A stretch of 24,000 nucleotides of DNA from Desulfomicrobiaceae bacterium (GTDB lineage: Bacteria; Desulfobacterota; Desulfovibrionia; Desulfovibrionales; Desulfomicrobiaceae): assembly GCA_003530935.1 (NCBI GenBank), contig DPEO01000045.1, positions 6,034 to 30,033 on the forward strand, written 5' to 3'. Shown piece by piece: positions 1 through 24,000 of the stretch. The stretch's first letter is position 1. Each line of letters begins with the position of its first letter. A program made the position numbers and the translations under genes. The notes beneath the pieces were generated by a model. It searched no databases, was not told the DNA's origin, and was given only the letters and a program-made list of their open reading frames with translations.

Positions 1-923
1 ATCCACGCCCGCACCAAGGATGGGCCTGCGCCGCCCAGCCATAGATAGGCCGCACTCCACGGAAGCCCGAAGGCCACGGCCAGCTGCGGCCGAGGCAAAT
101 ACACCGCCAACCTTGGCCATAGGCGGATGGCCAAACTGGCAAGCCCCAAGCCCATACCCAAAACCACGCCCACATGCAGCCCCGAAAGGGCAAGACTATG
201 GGCCAACCCGGCCCGGCGCACCCGGTCCATGAGTAAAGGCGGCACGAAAAAACGCTCTCCACCCACCACGGCAAGCAACATGCCGCGGGCCTTCTCAGGG
301 CAAAGGGCGGAAAAACGCTCCAAGACCCGAAGGCGCAGGCTTCCCGGACCCCGCACCCAATGTACCGGAACCGCGCCTTGGCTGTAGGCCCGAAACCCCA
401 CGCCGCGCCGCAACCACCGCTCCTCCGCCCGGGGAAGGCCAAAATTGGCCCGGCCCCAAAGCGGCCGCAGGCGCAACCGGGCTGCAAACACCGACCCCGG
501 GGCCACTAAATGCGGCGGATTGTCCCAGCTCCAGACCAGATTCGCCCCCAGAGGTCGAGGGCTTCCGTCTGCCCCCAGGGTCTCCACGTCGCCCACTACC
601 AGCAGCATGCGCTCTCCGGGATAGCTTTGCGCGGAAAGGACGGTCCCCCGCACCGACATCGTGCGCGGCCACGAGGGGTCATGGGCATCCACGCAGGCGG
701 GCGCAATGGGAAGCGTCCTCAGGGAAAGGAGAATGCCCAGGACGAGCCCCGCCGCCACATGAACGCGCCGTGGGGTGAGCACGAAGAGCACGACGGCGCA
801 GGCCAGACTCGGCGCCGCCGCGTGCGGGACAAAAACCCCCACCACCCCGGCGAGCACCACCCATTGCCAGGGGAGAAGCGGGAGTAAAAAGGAAGCAAAA
901 TCCGGCTTTTTCCACTGTACCAT
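1..923 (-). CDS. comEC: ComEC/Rec2 competence membrane protein, N-terminal part (gene continues beyond the left edge)
   Basis: Absent from the ORF track because it has no in-window stop. My hand translation of the minus strand from ATG 923 (GGGAGG 7 nt upstream) stays open to position 1. It reads MVQWKKPDFASFLLPLLPWQWVVLAGVVGVF...RVRRAGLAHSLALSGLHVGVVLGMGLGLASLAI. The GLAH-LA-SGLHVG block is the signature of the ComEC Competence domain, preceded by N-terminal TM helices. Confidence 0.8.
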   Translation of the reverse strand, partial: MVQWKKPDFASFLLPLLPWQWVVLAGVVGVFVPHAAAPSLACAVVLFVLTPRRVHVAAGLVLGILLSLRTLPIAPACVDAHDPSWPRTMSVRGTVLSAQSYPGERMLLVVGDVETLGADGSPRPLGANLVWSWDNPPHLVAPGSVFAARLRLRPLWGRANFGLPRAEERWLRRGVGFRAYSQGAVPVHWVRGPGSLRLRVLERFSALCPEKARGMLLAVVGGERFFVPPLLMDRVRRAGLAHSLALSGLHVGVVLGMGLGLASLAIRLWPRLAVYLPRPQLAVAFGLPWSAAYLWLGGAGPSLVRAW

Positions 924-984
924 CCATTGCCTCCCGGCCGCTGCTCGGTTAGGAGTTGGCCTATCTTTGCCCCAAGGAGGTCCC

Positions 985-1374
985 ATGGATTCCTACTCCG
1001 TACTCTTGGTGGACGACGAGCCGGATTTTTTGCGCACCATCGTCAAGCGCCTCACCAAACGCGGTATCCAGGCCACGAGCGCCACCAATGGTGAAGAGGC
1101 CCTCGCCATGCTTGCCCAAGAGCCCCGGGACGTGGTGGTCTTGGACGTGAAGATGCCGGGCATGGATGGGCTGAACGTCCTTCGCCGCATCAAGGCCGCC
1201 TGGCCAGACACAGAAGTCATCATGCTCACCGGGCATGCCAGCATCGAAACCGCCATGGAAGGAATGGCCAGCGGCGCCATGGACTATCTCATGAAACCCG
1301 CGGACCTGGAAGATCTTATCGACAAGCTCGAAGACGCGGTGCGAAAAAAACGCCTGCGCAGCCATCGGCCATGA
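985..1374 (+). CDS. Stand-alone CheY-like response regulator (receiver domain only)
   Basis: ORF 775..1374 trimmed to ATG 985, which follows AAGGAGG at 974-980. MDSYSVLLVDDEPDF...VVVLDVKMPGMDG...IMLTGH...DYLMKP contains the acidic pair, the phospho-acceptor Asp and the conserved T and K positions. The protein ends after the receiver domain, with no output domain. Confidence 0.9.
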   Translation: MDSYSVLLVDDEPDFLRTIVKRLTKRGIQATSATNGEEALAMLAQEPRDVVVLDVKMPGMDGLNVLRRIKAAWPDTEVIMLTGHASIETAMEGMASGAMDYLMKPADLEDLIDKLEDAVRKKRLRSHRP

Positions 1375-4300
1375 GCCTCTTCTTCGACCCCCAAGACCAC
1401 GCCCTCCTGGAACTGGTGGAGGACGTCCTCTCCCGAGCGAGCCGACCACGGAGCCTCTCCTCCCTCATGGCGCCAGCCCTGCATCCCCACGGCATCAAAG
1501 AGCTGGCCGCGCCCCGGGGACTGCGCATCGCCTACGCCGTGGCCAGCCTCTTGGGGTCCCTTGCCGGAGACAAGGCGCCGGAGCGTCTGGCGGCCCTCAC
1601 CATGCTCCGTGATGAAGTGCTCCTCACCGCGGACGTGCGCCTGCCCCGCAATACCGCCCGGGTGCTCATGCAGATCATGAAAGATCTCATCCGCCACCGG
1701 GGCGATACCGCCACCCAATTGCGTCTTGCCCATGCCTTCCGGGCCGTGTCCACCGGTCGTCCTCGGGAAGTGCAGCGGGCCCTTGCCCGCTACCATCTCC
1801 TCGAGATGCCCGAAGACTGGAATCAAGTCGCCTTCGACGACCACGTGCACGACGCCAACACCAAAGGCCGCAAAACGCCGACGCACCTGGTCATGGACGC
1901 GTGGATCAAGGGAATCCGCCACCTCACGGTAGTGTATTACAATTTCGTGGCCCCAGAAGTGGCTGAAGAGCTCCTGCAGGCCGCCGCCATTTTGGGCATG
2001 ACGGTACGCATCGGCATCGAGGTCCGCGCCCGCTTCCGCGATCTCTACGCCCGCTTCACCTGGGAGCCCTTCCAATCGCCGGATCCCGAATCCTTCCGTC
2101 GTTTTCTCGCCGCCCCCGCCGTGCAGTCCTTCATGGAAGCCGGCCGCCAGGTCTCCCTCTACCACCAGCGCTACGTGTTTGGCGCCCTCGATGCGTACAA
2201 CACCACGCATCGCAAAGCCATCGGCGAAGTCATCGGCCTGACCCCTCCCGCCATATCCCAGGAGCACTTTCTCCAATTCGTCGGCGAAGGGCAGCCGTCG
2301 CTGCTGCACCTGGCCCGCTGCATCGAAATCAGCCTGTATGAAGCTGCGGCCGCGCAGCCGTCTGCCCAGAGACATGCCCGTGTCCCCTTGGAAGAGGTAG
2401 ATCCCGAATATCTCATCCATCATTATCTCCAGCCCTGCCGCAATCCGCACCTCCACGATCCCACGCAACCGTCCGACGACCCGGAAGTACCGGAGCTCTT
2501 GCAGCGCTCCCCCAAAGAACTCTTGGAGAACCTCGCCGAGCTCCAACCTGCATCGCGCTTTGTCCTCAACCCAAGCAACCTGTCGGTCGCCGACGTGCTG
2601 GAGATCATCGCCCAATGCGAAGGGCTGGTCACGGACATGGAAATCTACAGCCTCAAGACTCTGGCCGGCGGACGGCCGGTGGACGAGTCCTGCGCCGAGG
2701 CCGTGGACATCACCAGTCCGCAGCGCGTCTCTCAGCGCTTGGCGGAACTCCAGCAGGCCCTGGGGGACGAACACATCATCGCGCTCAAGCGGGTGGTGCG
2801 CGGCATCGTCTGGGACTATCATCAGGAGCGTGAAGCCGCTTCCCGACGCGTTTCCCAGGCAGATACCGACGCCGAGCGCAAAACGCTCGAGGCCGAGCTC
2901 GCGGCCATGACCAGGCGCTGTGAGGACTTGCTTGCGATTTTGGAGCATCTGCCCGCCCTCCATCAGGCATACGCCGGCCGCCCCATGGGCGTGCGCATAG
3001 GCAGCAGTTCCACCGGACAATCACGACGCTTCTACGGCATGGGGTTGGCGGTGGCCGAAACCTTGCCCGCGCGCGCCCAAGCCGCCATCCATGACCCCCG
3101 AAATCCCCAGCGGCTCCGGCTTCCTTTGCGGGCCCACCTGGTGCGCCACCTGCGCCAGCCCGTGGGATACGGCAAGCTTTCCTGGGCAGCGCGTCTTTTG
3201 GGACTGCTTCCGCCGCCGTCCCTTTCGTGGGAGGTGGAACGCTTGGCGTGGAGCGACACCCCCGGCAACGTGGTGACCTTGGGCGGCCTGGGGGGCGGCA
3301 GAGAGCCCGAAGTCCCCATGCAGGGGCGTTGGGATTCCTTGAATTCCCACCTGAAAAACATCCTCAAGGTATGCATCGGCTTTATCCCCGCTTTCTTCAC
3401 CTTTGCCCTTACCAAGGACTGGTGGGTGCTCGCCTACGGCGGCGCATTCATCTGGTTTGCCATCACCGGGGTGCGCAACGTGGTACAGACCGTACTCGGC
3501 GGCGGCGGACTCAAGCGCCCAAGCGAACTGCCCTGGCGATCGCTCATCAGCGCCAACCGCATTGCAGACTCCCTGCTCTTTACCGGTTTTTCCGTGCCGC
3601 TCCTCGATTACCTCGTCAAAACCCTGCTGCTCCACCATGGTCTGGGCATCACGGTGGCCAGCCACCCCATACTCCTCTATGCCATCATGGCCGCGGCCAA
3701 CGGGCTGTATATCTTTTCCCACAATCTGTGGCGGGGCCTGCCCCGATCTGCAGCCATAGGCAACCTCTTCCGTTCCATTCTCTCCATCCCTGTGGCGCTC
3801 CTGTACAATAGTATCGCGGAAGGCGTCCTCCTCGCTACAGGCACCGCCGACCCCGACACCATCCTCCAGGCCGCAGCCGCCATCCTCTCCAAGCTCGCCT
3901 CCGACACCGTCGCCGGTGGCATCGAGGGGCTGGCCGACCGCAACGCCAACATCGCCATGCGCCTGCGGGACTACCGCACCAAGTTCACCATGCTCTTCAA
4001 TACCTTCGCCCGACTGGACGCCCTCTTTCCCGAAGAAGACGTGCTCGAGATGCTCCAAACGCCCAAGGCAGTCCTCGACACGCTCAATCTCGAGGCGCAG
4101 GAACTCGAGCAGGCGCTCATCGTCAACGCCTTGGACCTCATGTACTTCTGGTACTACCAGCCCCGGGCGAGAAGCGCCTTGCGGCAGATGGCGCGCACCA
4201 TGACGCAGGAAGAGTGGCTGATCTTCTTCCGTTCCCAATTGGTACTCAAACGGTTTCGGGAAATCAGCCGTATGCTCGTGGACGGCCTGGTGGGGAAGAA

Positions 4301-4412
4301 TTTTTCCAAAGCCCTGGCCTTTTATCTGGACCGGTATGAATCTTACCTGCGGGACATGGAACGACTCGGCGCGTGGCGCCGCCTGCATGCTCCGGCACGG
4401 GACAGCGCATAG
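1371..4412 (+). CDS. Large (1013 aa) polytopic membrane protein of unknown function
   Basis: Uninterrupted 1013-codon ORF. Its ATG at 1371 overlaps the upstream stop (ATGA). A cluster of about five hydrophobic helices is encoded at about 3360-3840 (ILKVCIGFIPAFFTFALT, WWVLAYGGAFIWFAITGV, IADSLLFTGFSVPLLDYLV, HPILLYAIMAAANGLYIF, IGNLFRSILSIPVALLYNSI). It is flanked by a soluble N-terminal region of about 650 aa and a helical C-terminal tail of about 170 aa. I can assign no motif to a named family. Confidence 0.85.
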   Translation: MSLFFDPQDHALLELVEDVLSRASRPRSLSSLMAPALHPHGIKELAAPRGLRIAYAVASLLGSLAGDKAPERLAALTMLRDEVLLTADVRLPRNTARVLMQIMKDLIRHRGDTATQLRLAHAFRAVSTGRPREVQRALARYHLLEMPEDWNQVAFDDHVHDANTKGRKTPTHLVMDAWIKGIRHLTVVYYNFVAPEVAEELLQAAAILGMTVRIGIEVRARFRDLYARFTWEPFQSPDPESFRRFLAAPAVQSFMEAGRQVSLYHQRYVFGALDAYNTTHRKAIGEVIGLTPPAISQEHFLQFVGEGQPSLLHLARCIEISLYEAAAAQPSAQRHARVPLEEVDPEYLIHHYLQPCRNPHLHDPTQPSDDPEVPELLQRSPKELLENLAELQPASRFVLNPSNLSVADVLEIIAQCEGLVTDMEIYSLKTLAGGRPVDESCAEAVDITSPQRVSQRLAELQQALGDEHIIALKRVVRGIVWDYHQEREAASRRVSQADTDAERKTLEAELAAMTRRCEDLLAILEHLPALHQAYAGRPMGVRIGSSSTGQSRRFYGMGLAVAETLPARAQAAIHDPRNPQRLRLPLRAHLVRHLRQPVGYGKLSWAARLLGLLPPPSLSWEVERLAWSDTPGNVVTLGGLGGGREPEVPMQGRWDSLNSHLKNILKVCIGFIPAFFTFALTKDWWVLAYGGAFIWFAITGVRNVVQTVLGGGGLKRPSELPWRSLISANRIADSLLFTGFSVPLLDYLVKTLLLHHGLGITVASHPILLYAIMAAANGLYIFSHNLWRGLPRSAAIGNLFRSILSIPVALLYNSIAEGVLLATGTADPDTILQAAAAILSKLASDTVAGGIEGLADRNANIAMRLRDYRTKFTMLFNTFARLDALFPEEDVLEMLQTPKAVLDTLNLEAQELEQALIVNALDLMYFWYYQPRARSALRQMARTMTQEEWLIFFRSQLVLKRFREISRMLVDGLVGKNFSKALAFYLDRYESYLRDMERLGAWRRLHAPARDSA

Positions 4413-4420
4413 GAGCTGCC

Positions 4421-7072
4421 ATGGGCATTATACGCGCCATCCAAAGCCTTCTTAGCCGGACCCCACCGCCTTTGCCTGCGGCCGACGCCGAGGATCAGGA
4501 AGCCATCTTCCGGGCTCGCTACGAAAACTTCCAGCGCCTGCTTGCCGCCAACAACGCCAGTCTCGACCTCATGGCCGCCCTGGAGGCCGCCCTGCACGGC
4601 GAGCGCCATTTCGGCATGTATTTTCTGCGCTCCACGGTGACGGCCCTACTCACCAAGGTCTACAGCATGGTGGAGCGCCTGCGCGCCCTGGCCCCAGAAC
4701 GCTACCCCGACCTCCCACCCGCCTTCCACGCCGTTGCCGAAGAGATCCGCACCCGCTTGGCCCCCCGGAAGGTGGTGGGCACTTCGGCCTTGGTCCTTGA
4801 TCTCCACGAACTTTCCGCCGCCATGGCCGACGACGTAGGCGCCAAGATGGCCCACTTGGGAGAACTTCGGCGTCTCAGCATCCCGGTGCCCGACGGCTTT
4901 GCCATTACCGCTGCGGCCTGCCAGACGTTTTTCCGGCATAACGGCCTGGGCGAAGAAATCGCCTGCATGGTCCAGTCCCACGCCATGGGTGGCGCCCTCT
5001 TTGACGTGGAAGCCACCAGCAAGACACCGGCATTCTCCATTTTGGACATCTGCACGCGCATCCAGGCCAAAATCCTCGACGCGCCGGTTCCGGAAGAAGT
5101 CCAGCAGGCCATCTTCGATGGATACGCCCGCCTCAAGGCGCGGCTGGGATACGCCCCACGCGTGGCCCTGCGTTCCAGCGCTGTGGGCGAAGACGCCGCC
5201 GGAGCCAGCTTCGCAGGTCAGCACCGCTCGCTCTTGAACTTGACGGAAGAAAGCCTCCTGGACGCCTACAAAGAAATCCTCGCCAGCAAGTATTCACCCC
5301 ATGCCACGGTATACCGACATCGTAAGGGGATCCGCGAAGACGAGGTCTTCATGGCCGTGGGCTGTCTCGTCATGGTGGACGCTGCGGCCGGCGGCGTGGC
5401 CTATTCTCGCAGCCCGGTGGATCCCCACAACACCCACGTGCACATCACCGCGGCCCTGGGTGCCGCCAAGGGCGTCGTGGACGGCAGTGCGCCCACGGAT
5501 CAGTACCAGGTGACGCGGGAAGACCCGCCTCGTCTTGCGGTCAGGGACATCGCGGAAAAATCCTGGCGCATCGTCCAAGCAGCCACCGAAGGCGTGCGCA
5601 GAGAGGCGGTGGAGGAAAGCGCCCGCACCCGCCCCTGCCTTACCGACTCGCAAGCCATAGAACTCGCCCGCATGGTGCTTTTCCTGGAGGACCATTACGG
5701 CACGGCCCAAGATGTGGAATGGGTGCTCACCCCCACCAACGAACTTGTCGTCCTCCAGGCCCGTCCCTTGGAAATCCGGGCCGAGGCGACGCAACCCGAT
5801 ACCGTGTCGCCAGCAGCCATCACGACTCCTGCGCGCATCTGCGGCGGCCAGACCGTAAGTCCCGGAGCGGGATGCGGTCCGGTGCACATCCTCCGCAACA
5901 ACGTGGACATGCTCACCGTCCCCCAGGGCGCCGTACTGGTGTGTGCGGACGCGCTGCCCAAATGGGCGGCCGTACTCCCCCAGGCCAGCGCCGTGGTGAG
6001 CGAGCGCGGCAGCACCGCCGGGCACCTGGGCACCGTGGCACGGGAGTTCCGCATCCCGGCCCTCTTTGGCGTCCCGGAAGCGACGGCCTTACTCGCCCCA
6101 GGGGAAATCGTGACGGTCGATGCCTCCACCACCTGCATCTACCCAGGCCGTGTGGAAGCCCTGCTTGCCCAAAAACCCGCCCCGCCGCCTCTGGCAGGCT
6201 CTCCCGTGTACCAAACCCTAGAGCGACTGGCCGAGGTCATTTTGCCCCTCACCCTCACCGACCCGGACAGCCCGCGGTTTCGGGCCAAGAACTGCACCAC
6301 CCTCCACGATATCACCCGTTTTTGTCACGAAAAGGCCGTTACCGAGATGTTCGCCTTTGGTCGGGATCATCCCTTTTCGCCGCGGGCAAGCAAACAGCTC
6401 AAAACCGTGGTCCCCATGCAGTGGTGGGTGCTCAACCTCGATGACGGCTTTACCCGAGAGGTCACAGGACGTTATGTGGATCTGGCCTCCATCGCCAGCA
6501 TCCCCATGCTTGCCCTATGGCGGGGAATCGTGGCCTTTCCCTGGGAAGGGCCACCGAGCCTCGATGGCCGCGGCTTCATGTCCGTCCTTTTCCAAAGCGC
6601 CACCAACCCCAACCTGGAGCCCGGGGCCGCCTCCCAATACGCCACCAAGAACTATTTCGTCATCGCCCGGCATTTTTGCTCCATGCAATGCCGCTTCGGC
6701 TACCACTTCACGTCCGTGGAGACCATGGCCGGCCCCCGGCCGCGGGAAAACTACATCCGCTTCCAATTCAAAGGCGGGGCTGCCGACGAAACCCGCCGCG
6801 CCCGCCGCGCCCGGCTGGTGGCAGAACTCCTCGACGCCTTCCACTTCCAAACCCAGGTGCGCGGCGACAATCTCGCGGCGCGCATGGACGACTGCGAGGC
6901 GGCGTTCATCGAAAAGCATTTGGAACTGCTCGGACATCTCATCATGCACACCCGACAGTTGGACATGATCATGGCCCAAGAAGACCTGGTCGCGGCCTAC
7001 CGCGAGCGACTTCTTGCGCAAATGCGCTGGCTCTACGAACAGCCTTTGCCCACCCCTGTTTCCAGCGCCTAA
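4421..7072 (+). CDS. PEP-synthase/pyruvate-phosphate-dikinase-like enzyme: ATP-grasp (PPDK_N-type) plus swivelling phospho-His domain, with a non-canonical C-terminal domain
   Basis: ORF 4373..7072 trimmed to ATG 4421. The AGGAG at 4411-4415 overlaps the upstream TAG stop. VGAKMAHLGELRR..IPVPDGFAITAAAC...ALRSSAVGEDAAGASFAGQHRS...AQDVEWVL...LVVLQARPL matches the PEP/pyruvate-binding ATP-grasp domain. VSERGSTAGHLGTVAREFRIPALFGV matches the mobile His domain (His codon 6023-6025). The last 290 aa or so (NYIRFQFKGGAADETRRARR...) do not resemble the PEP-utilising TIM barrel. Confidence 0.88.
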   Translation: MGIIRAIQSLLSRTPPPLPAADAEDQEAIFRARYENFQRLLAANNASLDLMAALEAALHGERHFGMYFLRSTVTALLTKVYSMVERLRALAPERYPDLPPAFHAVAEEIRTRLAPRKVVGTSALVLDLHELSAAMADDVGAKMAHLGELRRLSIPVPDGFAITAAACQTFFRHNGLGEEIACMVQSHAMGGALFDVEATSKTPAFSILDICTRIQAKILDAPVPEEVQQAIFDGYARLKARLGYAPRVALRSSAVGEDAAGASFAGQHRSLLNLTEESLLDAYKEILASKYSPHATVYRHRKGIREDEVFMAVGCLVMVDAAAGGVAYSRSPVDPHNTHVHITAALGAAKGVVDGSAPTDQYQVTREDPPRLAVRDIAEKSWRIVQAATEGVRREAVEESARTRPCLTDSQAIELARMVLFLEDHYGTAQDVEWVLTPTNELVVLQARPLEIRAEATQPDTVSPAAITTPARICGGQTVSPGAGCGPVHILRNNVDMLTVPQGAVLVCADALPKWAAVLPQASAVVSERGSTAGHLGTVAREFRIPALFGVPEATALLAPGEIVTVDASTTCIYPGRVEALLAQKPAPPPLAGSPVYQTLERLAEVILPLTLTDPDSPRFRAKNCTTLHDITRFCHEKAVTEMFAFGRDHPFSPRASKQLKTVVPMQWWVLNLDDGFTREVTGRYVDLASIASIPMLALWRGIVAFPWEGPPSLDGRGFMSVLFQSATNPNLEPGAASQYATKNYFVIARHFCSMQCRFGYHFTSVETMAGPRPRENYIRFQFKGGAADETRRARRARLVAELLDAFHFQTQVRGDNLAARMDDCEAAFIEKHLELLGHLIMHTRQLDMIMAQEDLVAAYRERLLAQMRWLYEQPLPTPVSSA

Positions 7073-7108
7073 CCCGAAAAACCACCGCACCACACTTGGA
7101 GAACCACC

Positions 7109-7294
7109 ATGCACGACGAACACCGTGACGCCCCCCGACAAATCCTGTTGCGCGGGGTCCTCGTAGGCGGCGCCCTGGGGATGATCGCCCGCTGGTTCGG
7201 CTATGAGCCGGCCAAGGCCTTTTTCCTGGCCGTCATCTGCGGACTTCTCGCCGCAGGGACCCGCATTGCGCTTTTGCGACGCCGGAAAAAATAA
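7109..7294 (+). CDS. Small (61 aa) two-helix membrane protein, hypothetical
   Basis: ATG 7109 is preceded by GGAGA at 7096-7100, 36 nt after the upstream stop. GC-rich third codon positions match neighbouring genes. There are two hydrophobic stretches (ILLRGVLVGGALGMIARWF and AFFLAVICGLLAAGTRIALL) and a basic RRRKK tail. No family was recognised. Confidence 0.5.
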   Translation: MHDEHRDAPRQILLRGVLVGGALGMIARWFGYEPAKAFFLAVICGLLAAGTRIALLRRRKK

Positions 7295-7384: not shown

Positions 7385-9702
7385 ATGTTTCGAAAGTTCT
7401 CCTTTCAGATCAAACTCCAAAGCGTCGTAGGCGTGCTCATGCTGGCCGCCGTAGTCGTATCGTCCTCCATTATCTTCGTACATGTGCGCGACGGGGCCGT
7501 GCGCCTCGGCAAGGCCATGTCGCAAAACATGGTAGACCAACTCGCAGGCGCCATCCGCCTCTATACCGAAAGCACCCGCGTCCGCCTCAAGGCCACTTCC
7601 GATGCAGCCCAGCTCCTGATTGAACCCAGCGAAGTTGGTCCGGGCTACGATTCCGCTTTTCTCGTGGCAGACCGCATCCGTCTCCAATACGATACGCTCG
7701 CCAGTATCTACGCCCGCACCCCATCAGGATTTGTTCTGGTCTCCACCAATCGTGAAGTGCAGGGGAAACGACCTGTGGGGGAAGCCCTTGCCAATGCCCA
7801 CGCCGCCAAATCCCTTGCCGATGGGCGCCCAGTGGAGGGCGAAGAAGTCATCGACGGCATGCTGCGCCTCGTGGAATACCGCCCCATCTTCTGGGAAGGC
7901 CGAGTGGTGGGGGCGCTTCTGACCGCCAAGCGGGTCCTCACCCCAGAACTCGTCCACCTCCTCGAACAAACGAGCATCCAGGGAAAAGGGTATGCTTTGA
8001 TTATCGATGCCCAAGGCATCCTCGTGCACCATCCCCGCAAGGAGCTTGTGGGCCGCCCTGCGGCAGAATCCATCCCAGCGGCCCCCCAACTCCTTGCTGC
8101 GCAAGACGGCATCGTGGAATATAGCTGGGATGGGGAAACGAAGATCGCGGGCAAACGCTCCGTGCCCGCCATTGGTTGGAATATTTTCTTCACCATGACT
8201 GCGGCCGAGACCTTGCACGGACTCGATCATGAGATCCTGAGGTCTGCAGGCATGGGTATGGCGGCAGCCGCCCTCCTCGCCTTTGGCACCCTGCTTGTCC
8301 TCGTCCCCCTGCTCCTTGCCCCTATCCGGCGCATGGCGGCGGCGGCCAAAGATATCGCCAGCGGCCACTATGACGTGCACATCGATTACAGCGCCCGGGA
8401 CGCCATCGGCGCCACTGCCGAGGCCATCCACCATATGGCGGCCACTATCAAGGAGCGCATGGGCTTTACCCAAGGAGTGATCGAGTCCATCAAAATACCG
8501 AACGTCATCTGTGGTCCCGATGCCACGGTCGTACGCTGCAACCAAGCCATGCTCGACGTTTTAGAAATCCCAGGCGCCCCTGAAGACTGGGAGGGCAAAG
8601 ACGTCAATCGCCTCATCTTCGGCGATGCGCCCGGAGAGAGCGTTGCCGCGCAGGTGGCCAGGGATCGCCAGGCGCGCTTGGGTGTAGAGCGGACGTTTAC
8701 CACTCGCACCGGGAAAACCATCCACGTGCGCATCGACTGCACTCCCCTGTTCGATCTCGACGGCAATTTTTTGGGCTCCTCCTCCATCTGGATGGACCTC
8801 ACGGACATCGTTCGGGCCAAGGAAGCCATCGAGGCGAGCCAAAAGCGGCTGCTGGCCGTGGCAGGACAAGTGGATTCCCTGACCCAGCACATATCGCCAC
8901 CGCCACCGACGAGCTGGCCGCCCAGGTGGAACAAGTCTCACGCGGAACCGATGTGCAGCGCGACCGTACCGCGGCGACAGCCACAGCCATGGAAGAGATG
9001 AACGCCACGGTGCTCGAAGTGGCCAAACACGCAGCCGAAGCCGTGCGCGGCTCGCAAGAGGTGCAGGAGAAAAGCCACGAGGGCAACCAGGCCGTGGAAC
9101 GGGTTATCGAGGCCATGGCGGCAGTCCGCGAAAGAGCATCGGTCCTCGCCCAAGAGATCAACGCCCTCGGCTCCAAGGCTGCGGACATCCGCTCCATTGT
9201 GGACGTCATCGCCGACATCGCCGATCAAACCAATTTGCTTGCCCTCAACGCCGCCATCGAGGCGGCCCGGGCCGGAGACGCGGGCCGAGGCTTTGCCGTG
9301 GTGGCCGACGAAGTCCGCAAGCTCGCCGAGCGCACTATGGCGGCCACCGGTCAGGTCACCCAATCCATCGAGGCCATCACCAGCGGAGTTGGCCACACCG
9401 TCCACAGCATGGCCCAGGTGTCCCAGGCGGTCGATACCGCCAACCAGCTCGCAGCACAGGCGGGAGAAACCCTCATGGCCATTGCCCGCATCGCCGAATT
9501 GGCCATGAGCCAAATCACCTCCATCGCCACGGCTGCCGAAGAACAGTCCGCCACCTCGGAAGAGGTCAACCGCTCGGTGGCGGAGATTTCCACCATCGCC
9601 AGTGAAGCAGCCCAGGCCATGACCCAATCCGCGCAGGCCGTGAGCGACCTTGCGCAGCAGGTGGGGGCATTGCGCGAGCTCGTGGCATCCCTCAAGGCAT
9701 AA
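7385..9702 (+). pseudogene. Methyl-accepting chemotaxis protein (Cache sensor, TM, HAMP, PAS, MCP signalling domain) interrupted by a frameshift near 8891-8897
   Basis: There are two ORF fragments: 7352..9001 (true start ATG 7385 after AGGAGG) and 8926..9702 in a different frame. Fragment 1 has an N-terminal TM helix, a periplasmic Cache-like region, a second TM helix, a HAMP domain (PIRRMAAAAKDIASGHYDV...) and a PAS domain. It then decays into [14 protein letters not shown]. The other frame reads [46 protein letters not shown]... from 8893 on, and continues through the canonical [32 protein letters not shown] hairpin tip to stop 9702. Confidence 0.85.
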
Positions 9703-21108: not shown

Positions 21109-21609
21109 ATGATGAAAGTCATTCTGCGCGCCGATGTGGACAACTTGGGCCGTCTGGGAGACATCGTCACCGTCAAGCCCGGCTACGGCCGCAACTACCT
21201 GTTGCCTCAAGGACTGGCTTCTTTGGCCACTCCTTCCAACCTCAAGGTCTTCGAACAGGAACGCAAAAAGCTGGAAGCCAAGAACAACGCCCTGCGTGCT
21301 GCGGCACAGGAGCTGGCGGACAAGCTGGCCGCTGCCCAGGTGCGCATCGAAGTGCGTGTGGGCGAGAACGACAAGCTCTACGGCTCCGTGACCAGCACCC
21401 AGATTGCCGAAGCCTTGGCCGCCCAAGGGATCGAGCTGGATCGCCGCAAGATCCTCTTGGCGGAGCCCATCCGCTCCCTGGGCGTGTACACCGTGGAAGT
21501 GAAACTCCACCCCGAGGTGGTCGCCACGCTGCAGGTGGAAATCGCCAAGCCGGGTCAGCCTGCCGCGCAAGAGCCCGCTGCCGATGCCCCCGCGGAAGAC
21601 ATCGAGTAA
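21109..21609 (+). CDS. rplI: 50S ribosomal protein L9
   Basis: TAGGAGG lies 5 nt upstream. MMKVILRADVDNLGRLGDIVTVKPGYGRNYLLPQGLA is the L9 N-terminal domain. A start at the second ATG (21112) is also possible. Confidence 0.95.
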   Translation: MMKVILRADVDNLGRLGDIVTVKPGYGRNYLLPQGLASLATPSNLKVFEQERKKLEAKNNALRAAAQELADKLAAAQVRIEVRVGENDKLYGSVTSTQIAEALAAQGIELDRRKILLAEPIRSLGVYTVEVKLHPEVVATLQVEIAKPGQPAAQEPAADAPAEDIE

Positions 21610-21631
21610 TCCCCGTCGCTCTGAGGACGCC

Positions 21632-23002
21632 GTGCACGCGGCGTCTTCGGAGCTTTTGCGCAAAGTCCCCCCGCACAACCTGGAGGCCGAACAGGCCGTG
21701 TTGGGCGGGATTTTTTTGCACAACGAACTGTTCCACCAACTCGTCGACATCATCTCTGCCGACGATTTCTACTCCCCCGCCCATCGCACCATCTACGCCG
21801 CCTGCGAGGAACTCTACCGCCGCGGGCAACCCATGGACCTGGTGACCGTCGCCGAGCACCTCGCCTCCCATGGCCAATTGGATGCCGTGGGCGGCTCCGT
21901 ATACTTGGCCTCGCTCACCAACGCCGTGGCCTCCGGGGCCAACGCCGTCTTTCATGCAGGGATCGTCCGGGACAAGGCGGTGCGACGCCGGCTCATCCAA
22001 ACCGCAGCGGAAGTGCTTACTTCCTGCTTCGAGAACGCCGAAGACACCGAACACCTTCTCGACGACGCCGAACAGCGCATCTTTGCCGTGGCCGAGGCCA
22101 AAAGCCGGCCCAGCTTCATCTCCAGCAAAGACCTCATCACCCGCGTCTTCGAACAGCTCGAAACCCGCGCCGGCCAAGGGGATCTCATCACCGGGGTGCC
22201 CACCGGCTACTTGGATTTCGACCGCATGACCGCAGGTCTTCAGCGCTCGGACCTGATCATCGTGGCAGCCCGGCCGTCCATGGGCAAGACGGCGCTCGCC
22301 CTCAACATGGGCATGCGCGCCGCGGTGCACCACGGGGTGCCGGTGGCCATCTTCTCTCTGGAGATGTCCATGGAGCAGCTCATGATGCGTATGCTCGGCT
22401 GCCACGCCCGCGTGGACTTGTCCCGTCTGCGCACCGGCTTTCTCAACGATGAAGACTGGGCCCGCCTCTACCAAGCGGCAGACGAGCTCTCCCACGCCCC
22501 CATCTTCATCGACGACACCCCGGCCCTGTCCACTATGGAGATCCGCGCCCGCTGCCGTCGGCTCAAGGCGGAAAAAAACATCGGCCTGGTGATCGTGGAT
22601 TACCTGCAGCTCATGCGCTCCAGCCGCTCCCAAGACTCCCGCGAGCAGGAGATCTCCGACATCTCCCGCAGCCTCAAGGCCTTGGCCAAAGAATTGGACA
22701 TCCCGGTGGTGGCCCTGGCCCAGCTCAACCGCAAAGTGGAAGAACGCTCGGATAAACGCCCCGTGCTCTCGGACCTCCGCGAATCCGGCGCCATCGAACA
22801 GGACGCCGACGTCATCGTCTTCATCTACCGGGATGCGGCCTACAACAAGGCTGAAGACAACCCCAACAAGAATATCGCCGAGATCATCATCGGCAAGCAG
22901 CGCAACGGCCCTGTGGGGAGCCTGCGTCTTGCCTACTTTGGTCAGTATACGGCATTCGAAAACCTCACCGATGCGGGGATCCCATCGGAGCACGGCCTCT
23001 AA
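21632..23002 (+). CDS. dnaB: Replicative DNA helicase DnaB
   Basis: ORF 21584..23002. KVPPHNLEAEQAVLGGIFL, Walker A ARPSMGKTALALN, Walker B VIVDYLQLM, SRSLKALAKELDIPVVALAQLNR and IIIGKQRNGP are present. I prefer GTG 21632 as the start because it follows GAGGA and does not overlap rplI. ATG 21584 (26-nt overlap with rplI, weak RBS) remains possible. Confidence 0.9.
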   Translation: MHAASSELLRKVPPHNLEAEQAVLGGIFLHNELFHQLVDIISADDFYSPAHRTIYAACEELYRRGQPMDLVTVAEHLASHGQLDAVGGSVYLASLTNAVASGANAVFHAGIVRDKAVRRRLIQTAAEVLTSCFENAEDTEHLLDDAEQRIFAVAEAKSRPSFISSKDLITRVFEQLETRAGQGDLITGVPTGYLDFDRMTAGLQRSDLIIVAARPSMGKTALALNMGMRAAVHHGVPVAIFSLEMSMEQLMMRMLGCHARVDLSRLRTGFLNDEDWARLYQAADELSHAPIFIDDTPALSTMEIRARCRRLKAEKNIGLVIVDYLQLMRSSRSQDSREQEISDISRSLKALAKELDIPVVALAQLNRKVEERSDKRPVLSDLRESGAIEQDADVIVFIYRDAAYNKAEDNPNKNIAEIIIGKQRNGPVGSLRLAYFGQYTAFENLTDAGIPSEHGL

Positions 23003-23023
23003 CCCCAACCTGCCGAGGACGCC

Positions 23024-24000
23024 ATGCACCACGCCTTCTGCCCTGAAGAATTCTGGTCCCAGGATACGCTGCGCGCCGTCCAATCCGCTCGCCTGCAATC
23101 GATTATCGAGGCATCCGCCCGCTCCCCCTTCTATGGCCAGCGTTTTGCCCAGCTCGGCATCGCCCCTGGAGACATCCGCAGCGTCGACGACATCCGGCAC
23201 CTTCCCTTCACCACCAAAGACGACCTCCGGGCCGCCTATCCGGACAAGATGCTCACCCTGCCGCTACGCCAGATGGCGCGGTTGCACGCCTCTTCCGGCA
23301 CCACCGGCGCGGCCACCGTGGTGTACTATACCCACAACGACCTGGCGGCCTGGGCCGATTTAGTGGCCCGCTGCATGCACATGACCGGCATCCGCGCGGA
23401 CGACACCTTCCAGAACATCGCCGGCTACGGACTCTTCACCGGCGGCCTTGGATTTCACTACGGCGCCGAGCGCCTGGGCTGTCTCACCATCCCTGCCGGG
23501 GCGGGGAATTCCAAGCGCCAGCTGAAGCTCCTGGAAGACTTCCGGGTCACAGCGGTCCATATCATCCCCTCCTACGCCCTGCATCTGGCCTCGATGATGG
23601 AGGAAATGGATTTCGACCCCCAGCGCCTTGCCCTGCGCATCGCCCTCATCGGCGCAGAGCCCCACACCGAGGCCATGCGCCGCCGCATCGAATCCTTCTT
23701 CGGGGTGCGCGCCTACAACTCCTACGGCCTTTCGGAAATGAATGGTCCGGGGGTGGCCTTCGAATGCCCGGAGCAAAACGGCATGCACCTGTGGGAAGAC
23801 GCCTACATCGCGGAGATCATCGATCCTGCCACCGGAGATCCAGTGCCGGAAGGCCAGGTGGGCGAGCTGGTGCTCACCACCCTCACCCGGGAAGGGATGC
23901 CCCTTATCCGCTACCGCACCCGGGACCTCACCCGGTTTCTGCCCGGCCAGTGCCCCTGCGGCCGGGCCCATCGCCGCATCGACCGTATCAGCGGCAGGGC
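23024..24000 (+). CDS. paaK: Phenylacetate-CoA ligase (PaaK) family adenylate-forming enzyme, N-terminal ~325 aa (continues past the right edge)
   Basis: Absent from the ORF track because it has no in-window stop. My hand translation from ATG 23024 (the first start after an in-frame TAA, with GAGGA upstream) stays open to the edge. It reads MHHAFCPEEFWSQDTLRAVQSARLQSIIEASARSPFYGQRF...IRHLPFTTKDDLRAAYP...LHASSGTTGAATVVYYT...YGLFTGGLGFHYGAERLG...YNSYGLSEMNGPGVAFEC...PLIRYRTRDL. These are the PaaK/F390-synthetase family motifs. Substrate specificity cannot be inferred. Confidence 0.85.
   Translation, partial: MHHAFCPEEFWSQDTLRAVQSARLQSIIEASARSPFYGQRFAQLGIAPGDIRSVDDIRHLPFTTKDDLRAAYPDKMLTLPLRQMARLHASSGTTGAATVVYYTHNDLAAWADLVARCMHMTGIRADDTFQNIAGYGLFTGGLGFHYGAERLGCLTIPAGAGNSKRQLKLLEDFRVTAVHIIPSYALHLASMMEEMDFDPQRLALRIALIGAEPHTEAMRRRIESFFGVRAYNSYGLSEMNGPGVAFECPEQNGMHLWEDAYIAEIIDPATGDPVPEGQVGELVLTTLTREGMPLIRYRTRDLTRFLPGQCPCGRAHRRIDRISGR

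Follow-up and report, generated by a model that had tools for sequence, protein, structure and literature searches.

What does a receiver protein without an output domain control when it stands at the head of an operon that encodes no histidine kinase? The question is raised by a 24,000-nt stretch of DNA from a Desulfomicrobiaceae bacterium (hereafter the window; positions 6,034 to 30,033 of the forward strand of contig DPEO01000045.1, assembly GCA_003530935.1). Four genes follow one another there on the plus strand, encoding a single-domain receiver (RR), a large membrane protein (BIG), a dikinase-like enzyme (ENZ) and a small peptide of 61 residues (Table 1). With moderate confidence, we propose that these genes make up a composite operon specific to one clade, in which a kinase encoded at an unlinked locus would phosphorylate the receiver and the receiver would in turn control ENZ and/or BIG by contact.

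The composite nature of the operon is shown by gene order. Contexts were counted with tblastn thresholds among the 80 best-matching loci per scan, taken from species-representative genomes for BIG and from metagenomes for ENZ. The order RR-BIG-ENZ-peptide was found in close relatives only (at least 72% identity, the Thermodesulfomicrobium clade). Thermodesulfomicrobium sp. WS (about 90%) and a further relative (L082/L083, 72–74%) have the same order with short junctions, and the gene downstream of the operon in L082 is a sigma-70 gene instead of the chemoreceptor gene of the window. Desulfomicrobium-type contigs share the upstream synteny (Toluene_X, TetR, LptF/G and a divergent ComEC) and then carry RR and BIG only, followed by convergent genes. 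In Desulfomicrobium norvegicum, ENZ and the peptide are located at another site, where a histidine kinase and an ENZ paralogue precede them and a CBS protein and a DASS transporter lie nearby. Only 1 of the 80 BIG loci has an ENZ relative within 10 kb, and on the opposite strand; a close receiver is directly 5' of BIG in 4 of 80, and BIG was found in none of the 80 metagenomic ENZ loci. Because the four-gene order is so narrowly distributed, and the RR-BIG and ENZ-peptide pairs occur separately elsewhere, the operon is a lineage-specific fusion of these two pairs, limited to the Thermodesulfomicrobium clade. To judge from synteny, the joining is recent, with BIG already at the site and ENZ moving in behind it. 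The first-pass annotation, made from the sequence of the window alone, had seen a functional module in the four genes, on the condition that their neighbourhood is conserved in other genomes. This view was not supported, as the neighbourhood is not kept beyond close relatives and the syntenic site in Desulfomicrobium holds a two-gene RR-BIG operon only.

Such a history could also mean that the juxtaposition is neutral. A rearrangement would then have joined two independent units, with RR regulating only BIG and ENZ borrowing the promoter. We consider this explanation rather unlikely, although it is the most serious of the alternatives. The solitary RR-BIG pair at the Desulfomicrobium site speaks for it, as do the near absence of BIG-ENZ adjacency elsewhere and the heterogeneous neighbours of BIG, among which unsupervised clustering detected no dominant partner. 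However, the 9-nt junction between BIG and ENZ is preserved across 72–90% identity. Moreover, RR comes from a receiver group that accompanies ENZ cassettes in other genomes (see below), and the fusion therefore re-creates a widespread receiver-ENZ pairing.

The packing of the four genes is tight. The ATGA at 1371-1374 is common to the RR stop and the BIG start. The AGGAG at 4411-4415 overlaps the BIG stop codon and lies 5 bases upstream of the ENZ ATG, with a gap of 9 nt from the BIG stop to the ENZ start, and a 36-nt spacer separates the ENZ stop from the start of the 61-aa open reading frame. Every position given for these genes in the first-pass annotation was borne out on re-reading the sequence. 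The gene calls of Thermodesulfomicrobium sp. WS, whose complete genome matches the window at about 90%, include all four genes with identical starts. The promoter/terminator scan detected no terminator-like sites within the four-gene run; it was uninformative overall, with 0 promoter-like sites and terminator-like sites not above their frequency in shuffled sequence. The locus is probably a real operon with co-transcription. The genes are packed for co-expression and fit no characterised pathway, as initially stated.

Table 1. Coordinates in the window of the four genes and of the domains of their products
Feature	Position	Strand	Basis
RR, single-domain receiver, 129 aa	985..1374	+	ATG 985 to TGA 1372-1374
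BIG, membrane protein, 1013 aa	1371..4412	+	TAG stop at 4410-4412
BIG PHP-like cytoplasmic domain (probable), residues ~148-600	1812..3170	+	Foldseek, hhalign, conservation; long helical inserts
BIG membrane region, five to six helices, residues ~659-823	3345..3839	+	AF2 helices, hydropathy, invariant columns
BIG C-terminal all-helical cytoplasmic domain, residues ~824-1013	3840..4409	+	AF2 secondary structure; conserved in 61/61 homologues
ENZ, dikinase-like enzyme, 883 aa	4421..7072	+	TAA stop at 7070-7072
ENZ N-terminal three-helix domain, residues 1-120	4421..4780	+	Helices 20-58, 66-90 and 98-113 in model; no Pfam match
ENZ ATP-grasp domain (PPDK_N), residues 138-460	4832..5800	+	Pfam 4.4e-78; TM 0.90 to RPH ATP-binding domain 5hv6
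ENZ swivelling phospho-His domain (PEP-utilizers), residues 501-570	5921..6130	+	Pfam 3.5e-17
ENZ new C-terminal domain, residues 590-883	6188..7069	+	Model secondary structure, conservation; helices + antiparallel sheet
Two-helix peptide, 61 aa	7109..7294	+	ATG 7109

The receiver itself provides a first link to a wider system. Response_reg is its sole Pfam match (7e-33, 113.5 bits versus a cut-off of 30.2), and this match covers residues 6-115 of the 129-aa protein, leaving no output domain. The phosphorylation site read from the translation is complete, with the acidic pocket D10/D11, the phospho-acceptor D54, T82 and K104. In a database-wide search the nearest relatives of RR (70–98% identity) are single-domain receivers, and in the loci inspected all of them are directly 5' of BIG; several others are on contigs equal in length to one with a BIG match. 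Identity then drops sharply to a second tier at 59–65%, and the three members sampled from it (59–62%) all lie within cassettes containing a TauE permease and a 240-aa membrane protein (p240). One of them (L170) is immediately 5' of an 883-aa ENZ. The two others (L171 and L172) belong to a cassette of a kinase, three receivers, TauE and p240 that is divergent from ComEC, like the operon of the window. RR shares 52–62% identity with cassette receivers versus 26–38% with unrelated receivers in the fetched loci. Because its second-tier relatives sit in TauE-p240 cassettes while unrelated receivers are this distant, RR belongs to the receiver group of the kinase-receiver-TauE-p240-ENZ cassette. 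It is possibly a positional remnant of that cassette, since the ComEC-receiver synteny is common to the RR-BIG loci and to the L171 and L172 cassettes. Like CheY-like single-domain response regulators, RR consists of a receiver only, has the full phosphorylation site and would be expected to exert its output via protein-protein contact. It differs from them in that its sequence is closest to NtrC-type receivers, and in that the chemoreceptor neighbour is not conserved. A role in chemotaxis, raised by the chemoreceptor gene after the operon, was set aside because this adjacency is absent in L082 and RR groups with the TauE-cassette receivers.

In Desulfobacterota, the canonical cassette of ENZ comprises a dCache kinase, one to three single-domain receivers, a TauE/TSUP permease, p240 and ENZ. 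Among the metagenomic loci with enough flanking sequence, p240, which has no Pfam family, is directly 5' of ENZ in 38 of 52. A TauE/TSUP permease is found 5' in 33 of 42 and a kinase in 15 of 26, while same-strand receivers that reach 100 bits or more against RR lie 5' in 27 of 34. The genes enriched 3' of ENZ encode kinases (12/59), receivers (8/59) and Na_sulph_symp/CitMHS transporters (6/59), and a DASS anion transporter is sometimes part of the cassette. The order in Thermodesulforhabdus is dCache kinase, receiver, receiver, TauE, p234, ENZ and GAF kinase, and a Desulfonatronum locus unites the kinase, receiver, TauE, p240 and transporter themes with ENZ. No DNA-binding regulator was seen in the ENZ cassettes inspected in detail. 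In Desulfonatronum (L173:11649-12851), ENZ is immediately followed by a gene whose product is a fusion of a Cytidylate_kin2 and a receiver domain, apparently a further nucleotide-kinase-like output joined to a signalling cassette. The initial suggestion of a dikinase-type enzyme acting with a membrane protein under receiver control fits these contexts, including that of L170.

These cassettes also bear on the missing kinase. Pfam searches of the large open reading frames and tblastn with two kinase queries detected neither a histidine kinase nor an Hpt domain within the 24 kb of the window, and a TauE permease, p240 and an adjacent kinase were likewise not detected there by tblastn and Pfam. 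The first-pass annotation was thus right about the window. As a property of the system the absence does not stand, since most ENZ cassettes encode a complete dCache-HisKA-HATPase_c kinase; it is a local loss. It had further been speculated that the phospho-histidine of ENZ feeds the receiver aspartate directly. His-to-Asp phosphoryl transfer is chemically ordinary, and ENZ phospho-His535 would in that case give its phosphoryl group to D54 of RR, or take it back, in place of a histidine kinase or Hpt protein. Such transfer is in line with the lack of a detectable kinase in the window, with the existence of cassettes having several output-less receivers and no DNA-binding regulator, and with the additional N-terminal helical domain of ENZ. 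Yet no positive support for it was obtained. A full HisKA-HATPase_c kinase stands beside the receivers in most cassettes, which makes the direct transfer unnecessary; Pfam finds no HisKA, HATPase_c or Hpt signature in ENZ, only PPDK_N and PEP-utilizers; and the C-terminal domain, being polar and under strong conservation, points to a dedicated site for an acceptor. We judge this route very improbable. The same low probability applies to its generalisation, according to which the ENZ family would be an ATP-grasp-powered phosphoryl relay exchanging with output-less receivers, with ENZ as the phosphodonor of the window receiver. If true, this relay would be a route of receiver phosphorylation independent of both histidine kinases and Hpt proteins.

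What, then, does ENZ do? Its structure was taken from an AF2 model (pLDDT 84.8) and its conservation from an alignment of 59 homologues. The domains assigned in the first-pass annotation proved correct: RR has Response_reg only, and ENZ has PPDK_N and PEP-utilizers without PEP-utilizers_C, the PEP/pyruvate barrel, for which there is no Pfam match. The predicted catalytic residue is His535 in GSTAGHLGTVARE (codon 6023-6025). It is part of the motif G-x-x-x-G-H-L-x-x-x-x-R-E, of which G530, G534, H535, L536, R541 and E542 are invariant in the 59 homologues. The family-specific N-terminal domain has conserved columns (F37, L40, N44, L48, M51 and M66) and could be a docking or dimerisation module.

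Public records label ENZ "pyruvate, water dikinase". That ENZ is a true PEP synthase is nevertheless extremely unlikely. PEP synthase does come first in both the NCBIfam and the PDB matches, in agreement with the name given in the source. The best structural match of ENZ by Foldseek is PEP synthase 2ols, followed by HpeI 9goj, rifampin phosphotransferase 5hv1/5hv3 and pyruvate phosphate dikinase (PPDK) 1kbl, and the likeness runs through the ATP-grasp and His domains. With PEP synthase (PpsA) and PPDK, ENZ has in common the ATP-grasp domain followed by the His swivel and the conserved His motif. However, its scores against the PEP synthase models are less than half of the cut-offs (298 versus 598 for NF005057, 281 versus 740 for TIGR01418), and the alignments end near residue 583 in models of about 790 positions. 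In place of the barrel, ENZ has an unrelated 300-aa domain that is not a beta/alpha (TIM) barrel in the AF2 model, and a helical domain is added at its N-terminus. The PEP synthase assignment was therefore rejected on domain grounds. Rifampin phosphotransferase and PigC-type enzymes were also tried and rejected, with scores of 190–195 versus cut-offs of 999–1350. In the solved structure of rifampin phosphotransferase, the acceptor domain is placed between the ATP-grasp and the C-terminal His domain; in ENZ the His domain is central (501-570) and the acceptor domain would be C-terminal. The general likeness to the other X, water dikinases (rifampin phosphotransferase, PigC/RedH and the HpeI-type phenol dikinases; PMC4844700) lies in the same ATP-grasp and His-swivel chemistry with a non-pyruvate acceptor and a family-specific acceptor domain.

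The C-terminal domain of ENZ is among the best-conserved regions of the protein and includes the motifs HDITRF and HTRQLDM. Its invariant residues are H629, D630, R633, H636, E637, K658, R758, H762 and E767, followed by F783-G786-A787, R792, R796 and H843-T-R-Q846-x-D848. Nothing similar to it was found in Pfam, NCBIfam or PDB sequences, also when the alignment profile was used for the search. Searching with this profile (A3) retrieved 1401 cluster representatives at 50% identity, in which, judged from full-length matches, the domain is always the C-terminal module of proteins of about 850–890 aa; no other architecture was seen. Since the profile finds so many representatives of the same architecture, ENZ can be assigned, from its sequence, to a large and biochemically uncharacterised "X, water dikinase" family, whose hallmark is the new C-terminal domain of 300 aa. 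This domain is presumed to be the site for the acceptor substrate, because its pattern of invariant His, Arg, Asp and Glu residues is consistent with catalysis at an acceptor site. Many genomes have a second ENZ paralogue that is divergent in sequence (about 33% identity) but has all three parts of the architecture, including the C-terminal domain, and that often lies beside ENZ (L081:5293-7854; L085-L090, L132, L139, L145 and L161). This adjacency suggests a hetero-oligomer or two acceptor specificities. A weak tblastn match to the paralogue in the window (22883-23230, minus strand, E 0.001) is spurious, being antisense to a PaaK-like gene.

Among the nearest described systems is the poorly annotated "nitrate cluster" of Desulfovibrio (DVU0245-DVU0251 / Dde_0597-Dde_0605), reported by Korte et al. 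2014 (PMC4001038). In this cluster, a kinase and a single-domain receiver are encoded together with a TauE-like permease, a PtxB-like protein, a small hypothetical protein, a phosphatase and a PPDK_N/PEP-utilizers protein. Its disruption gives strong nitrate resistance (PMC4001038), and a mild thiosulfate defect is mentioned as unpublished data of these authors, who propose leaky anion (thiosulfate) transport. In gene composition the cluster matches the ENZ-family cassettes, and its dikinase-like protein has no annotated PEP/pyruvate domain. In contrast to the nitrate cluster, TauE, p240 and the kinase are missing from the window, where BIG and the 61-aa peptide are found. Other differences are the length of DVU0246 (744 aa versus 883 aa for ENZ) and the PtxB-like binding protein and dual-specificity phosphatase of the cluster. 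A proteomic study of Dissulfuribacter (2026, PMC13490349) reported that consecutive genes for a "PEP synthase", a "transmembrane protein co-occurring with TauE" and TauE are up during thiosulfate disproportionation. These genes, including DITHS69_1988, resemble the ENZ cassette by gene composition. A literature search for PPDK_N and PEP-utilizers together with a response regulator, and for follow-ups on DVU0246, found only Korte et al. 2014, and a review of sulfate transporters makes no mention of ENZ-type cassettes.

BIG belongs to a large family of its own. It has no Pfam or NCBIfam match, and its relatives form more than 2200 clusters at 90% identity, nearly all labelled "hypothetical". They are found in at least 583 stretches of species-representative genomes, are about 1050 aa long and come almost entirely from Desulfobacterota. 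An AF2 model of medium confidence (pLDDT 75.6) and an alignment of 61 homologues were used to describe the protein, whose N-terminal part is helical in the model and precedes an alpha/beta domain. Hydropathy peaks are confined to residues 663-821. Conservation in BIG is highest in this membrane region, with R702, N703, Q706, the GGGG at 710-713, D746, K750, H784, N785, R788, N798 and R801 as invariants. When the model was compared with the PDB using Foldseek, the top four matches were all PHP phosphoesterases (3o0f, 5.8e-6; 3e0f; RNase AM 9etk, 1.6e-4; 2yb1, 6.5e-4), with target TM values of 0.56–0.62, and the PHP domains of PolC/DnaE ranked next. An hhalign comparison to RNase AM of E. coli gives a statistically weak alignment (E 0.3). 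It places H158-x-H160 on HxH and G-I-E217 on GxE, and sets VVYYN opposite ITDHD of RNase AM, so that the "DH" of motif II is replaced by "YN". D-D-H158-V-H160-D is nearly invariant in the family; at later PHP ligand positions, compared by eye, there are apparent substitutions (N, S/T). Because the top Foldseek matches are PHP proteins and hhalign keeps HxH and GxE while replacing DH, residues ~150-600 of BIG probably adopt a PHP-like fold with a remodelled metal site. Compared with the PHP phosphoesterases that it resembles in fold and in these two motifs (RNase AM/YciV, 2yb1, 3o0f, PolC/DnaE), BIG has no Pfam PHP match, and its domain is interrupted by large helical insertions and joined to a membrane domain. 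A search with the family alignment gave no PDB profile match. The catalytic competence of the domain is uncertain, as DH and the later His/Asp ligands are apparently substituted.

BIG sits behind different signalling genes in different lineages, either a receiver or a c-di-GMP enzyme. A PAS-GGDEF-EAL protein is directly 5' of BIG in about 7–8 of 65 loci; in Desulfobulbus-type genomes (L002, L015, L018, L033, L040, L046, L051 and similar), it is a membrane protein encoded on the same strand. One Desulfobacteraceae contig (L074) has two convergent BIG paralogues about 220 nt apart, at 300-3293 (plus strand) and 3515-6517 (minus strand), with 47% and 44% identity to BIG of the window.

Alternatively, BIG could be a transporter or membrane enzyme replacing TauE and p240, with ENZ phosphorylating, or the PHP-like domain of BIG dephosphorylating, the compound that BIG handles. 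This would give a kinase/phosphatase pair like DVU0246/DVU0245, the nitrate cluster also pairing a dikinase-like gene with a phosphatase gene. It would agree with the nearly constant position of ENZ beside membrane proteins, with the invariant charged residues in the membrane helices of BIG and with its PHP-like fold. We think that a substitution of this kind is improbable, however. Neither hhalign nor blastp detected any relation of BIG to TauE, p240 or the 61-aa peptide. The synteny has BIG first at the site and ENZ later, no phosphatase recurs beside ENZ in 59 loci, and the PHP metal site looks degenerate.

The composite operon that we favour would work as follows. A conventional kinase encoded elsewhere would phosphorylate RR at D54, and phosphorylated RR would act on ENZ and/or BIG through protein contact, because no other output exists. 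ENZ would move the beta-phosphate of ATP onto His535, and its swivelling domain would carry the phosphate to an acceptor in the C-terminal domain, yielding AMP, Pi and phospho-X. The process would be linked to anion traffic or homeostasis at the membrane, probably of sulfur oxyanions. The PHP-like domain of BIG may bind or hydrolyse a phospho-compound, although BIG would not be a general partner of ENZ. Several points weigh against this scheme. Contact control by the receiver is deduced from the absence of another output, and the fusion that brought BIG and ENZ together could be neutral in function. The PHP assignment comes from a medium-confidence model, with Pfam PHP silent and several canonical metal ligands seemingly missing. 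The context counts depend on where the tblastn thresholds were set and cover the 80 best matches per scan, and the ties to DVU0246/Dde_0604 and DITHS69_1988 are analogies in gene composition alone.

The last gene of the operon encodes a peptide with a basic tail and, to judge from hydropathy, two hydrophobic helices (12-30 and 38-56). The peptide has no Pfam or NCBIfam match and, by hhalign and blastp, no relation to p240, TauE or BIG. Homologues with 53–88% identity follow ENZ in L081, L082, L085-L090, L092 and L166. Its position directly after ENZ is conserved in Desulfomicrobiaceae only, and the peptide is present in 6 of 75 metagenome ENZ loci.

Upstream of the operon, a ComEC/Rec2 gene (1-923, minus strand) extends past the start of the window and is divergent from RR, with a 61-nt spacer. 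Downstream, a Cache-HAMP-PAS-MCPsignal chemoreceptor gene (7385-9702, plus strand) is in two frames, with a break at about 8891-8892 due to a 2-nt "AT" insertion; its orthologue in Thermodesulfomicrobium sp. WS is intact and encodes 771 aa. The split reflects either a pseudogene or an assembly error in this metagenome-assembled genome. Further away, DnaB is encoded at 21584-23002, followed by an open reading frame resembling PaaK/coenzyme F390 synthetase (23024-24000, plus strand) that is truncated by the end of the window.

This locus exposes two sizeable uncharacterised families, BIG and ENZ, and a receiver-dikinase-transporter theme with a known phenotype. BIG is widespread in Desulfobacterota and has no family model; a degenerate PHP fold is the first structural lead for it. 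The large dikinase family defined by ENZ, which is biochemically uncharacterised, has a new, presumed acceptor domain and is found in signalling and anion-transporter cassettes for which protein-level control is the only visible output. The routine misannotation of ENZ as PEP synthase would distort reconstructions of carbon metabolism in sulfate reducers and sulfur disproportionators. The same operon is present in a named strain with a complete genome, Thermodesulfomicrobium sp. WS. As a similar cluster of Desulfovibrio controls nitrate sensitivity, the system is relevant to the control of oil-field souring. Knowing the ENZ acceptor would explain the nitrate phenotype and enlarge the dikinase superfamily by a new reaction.

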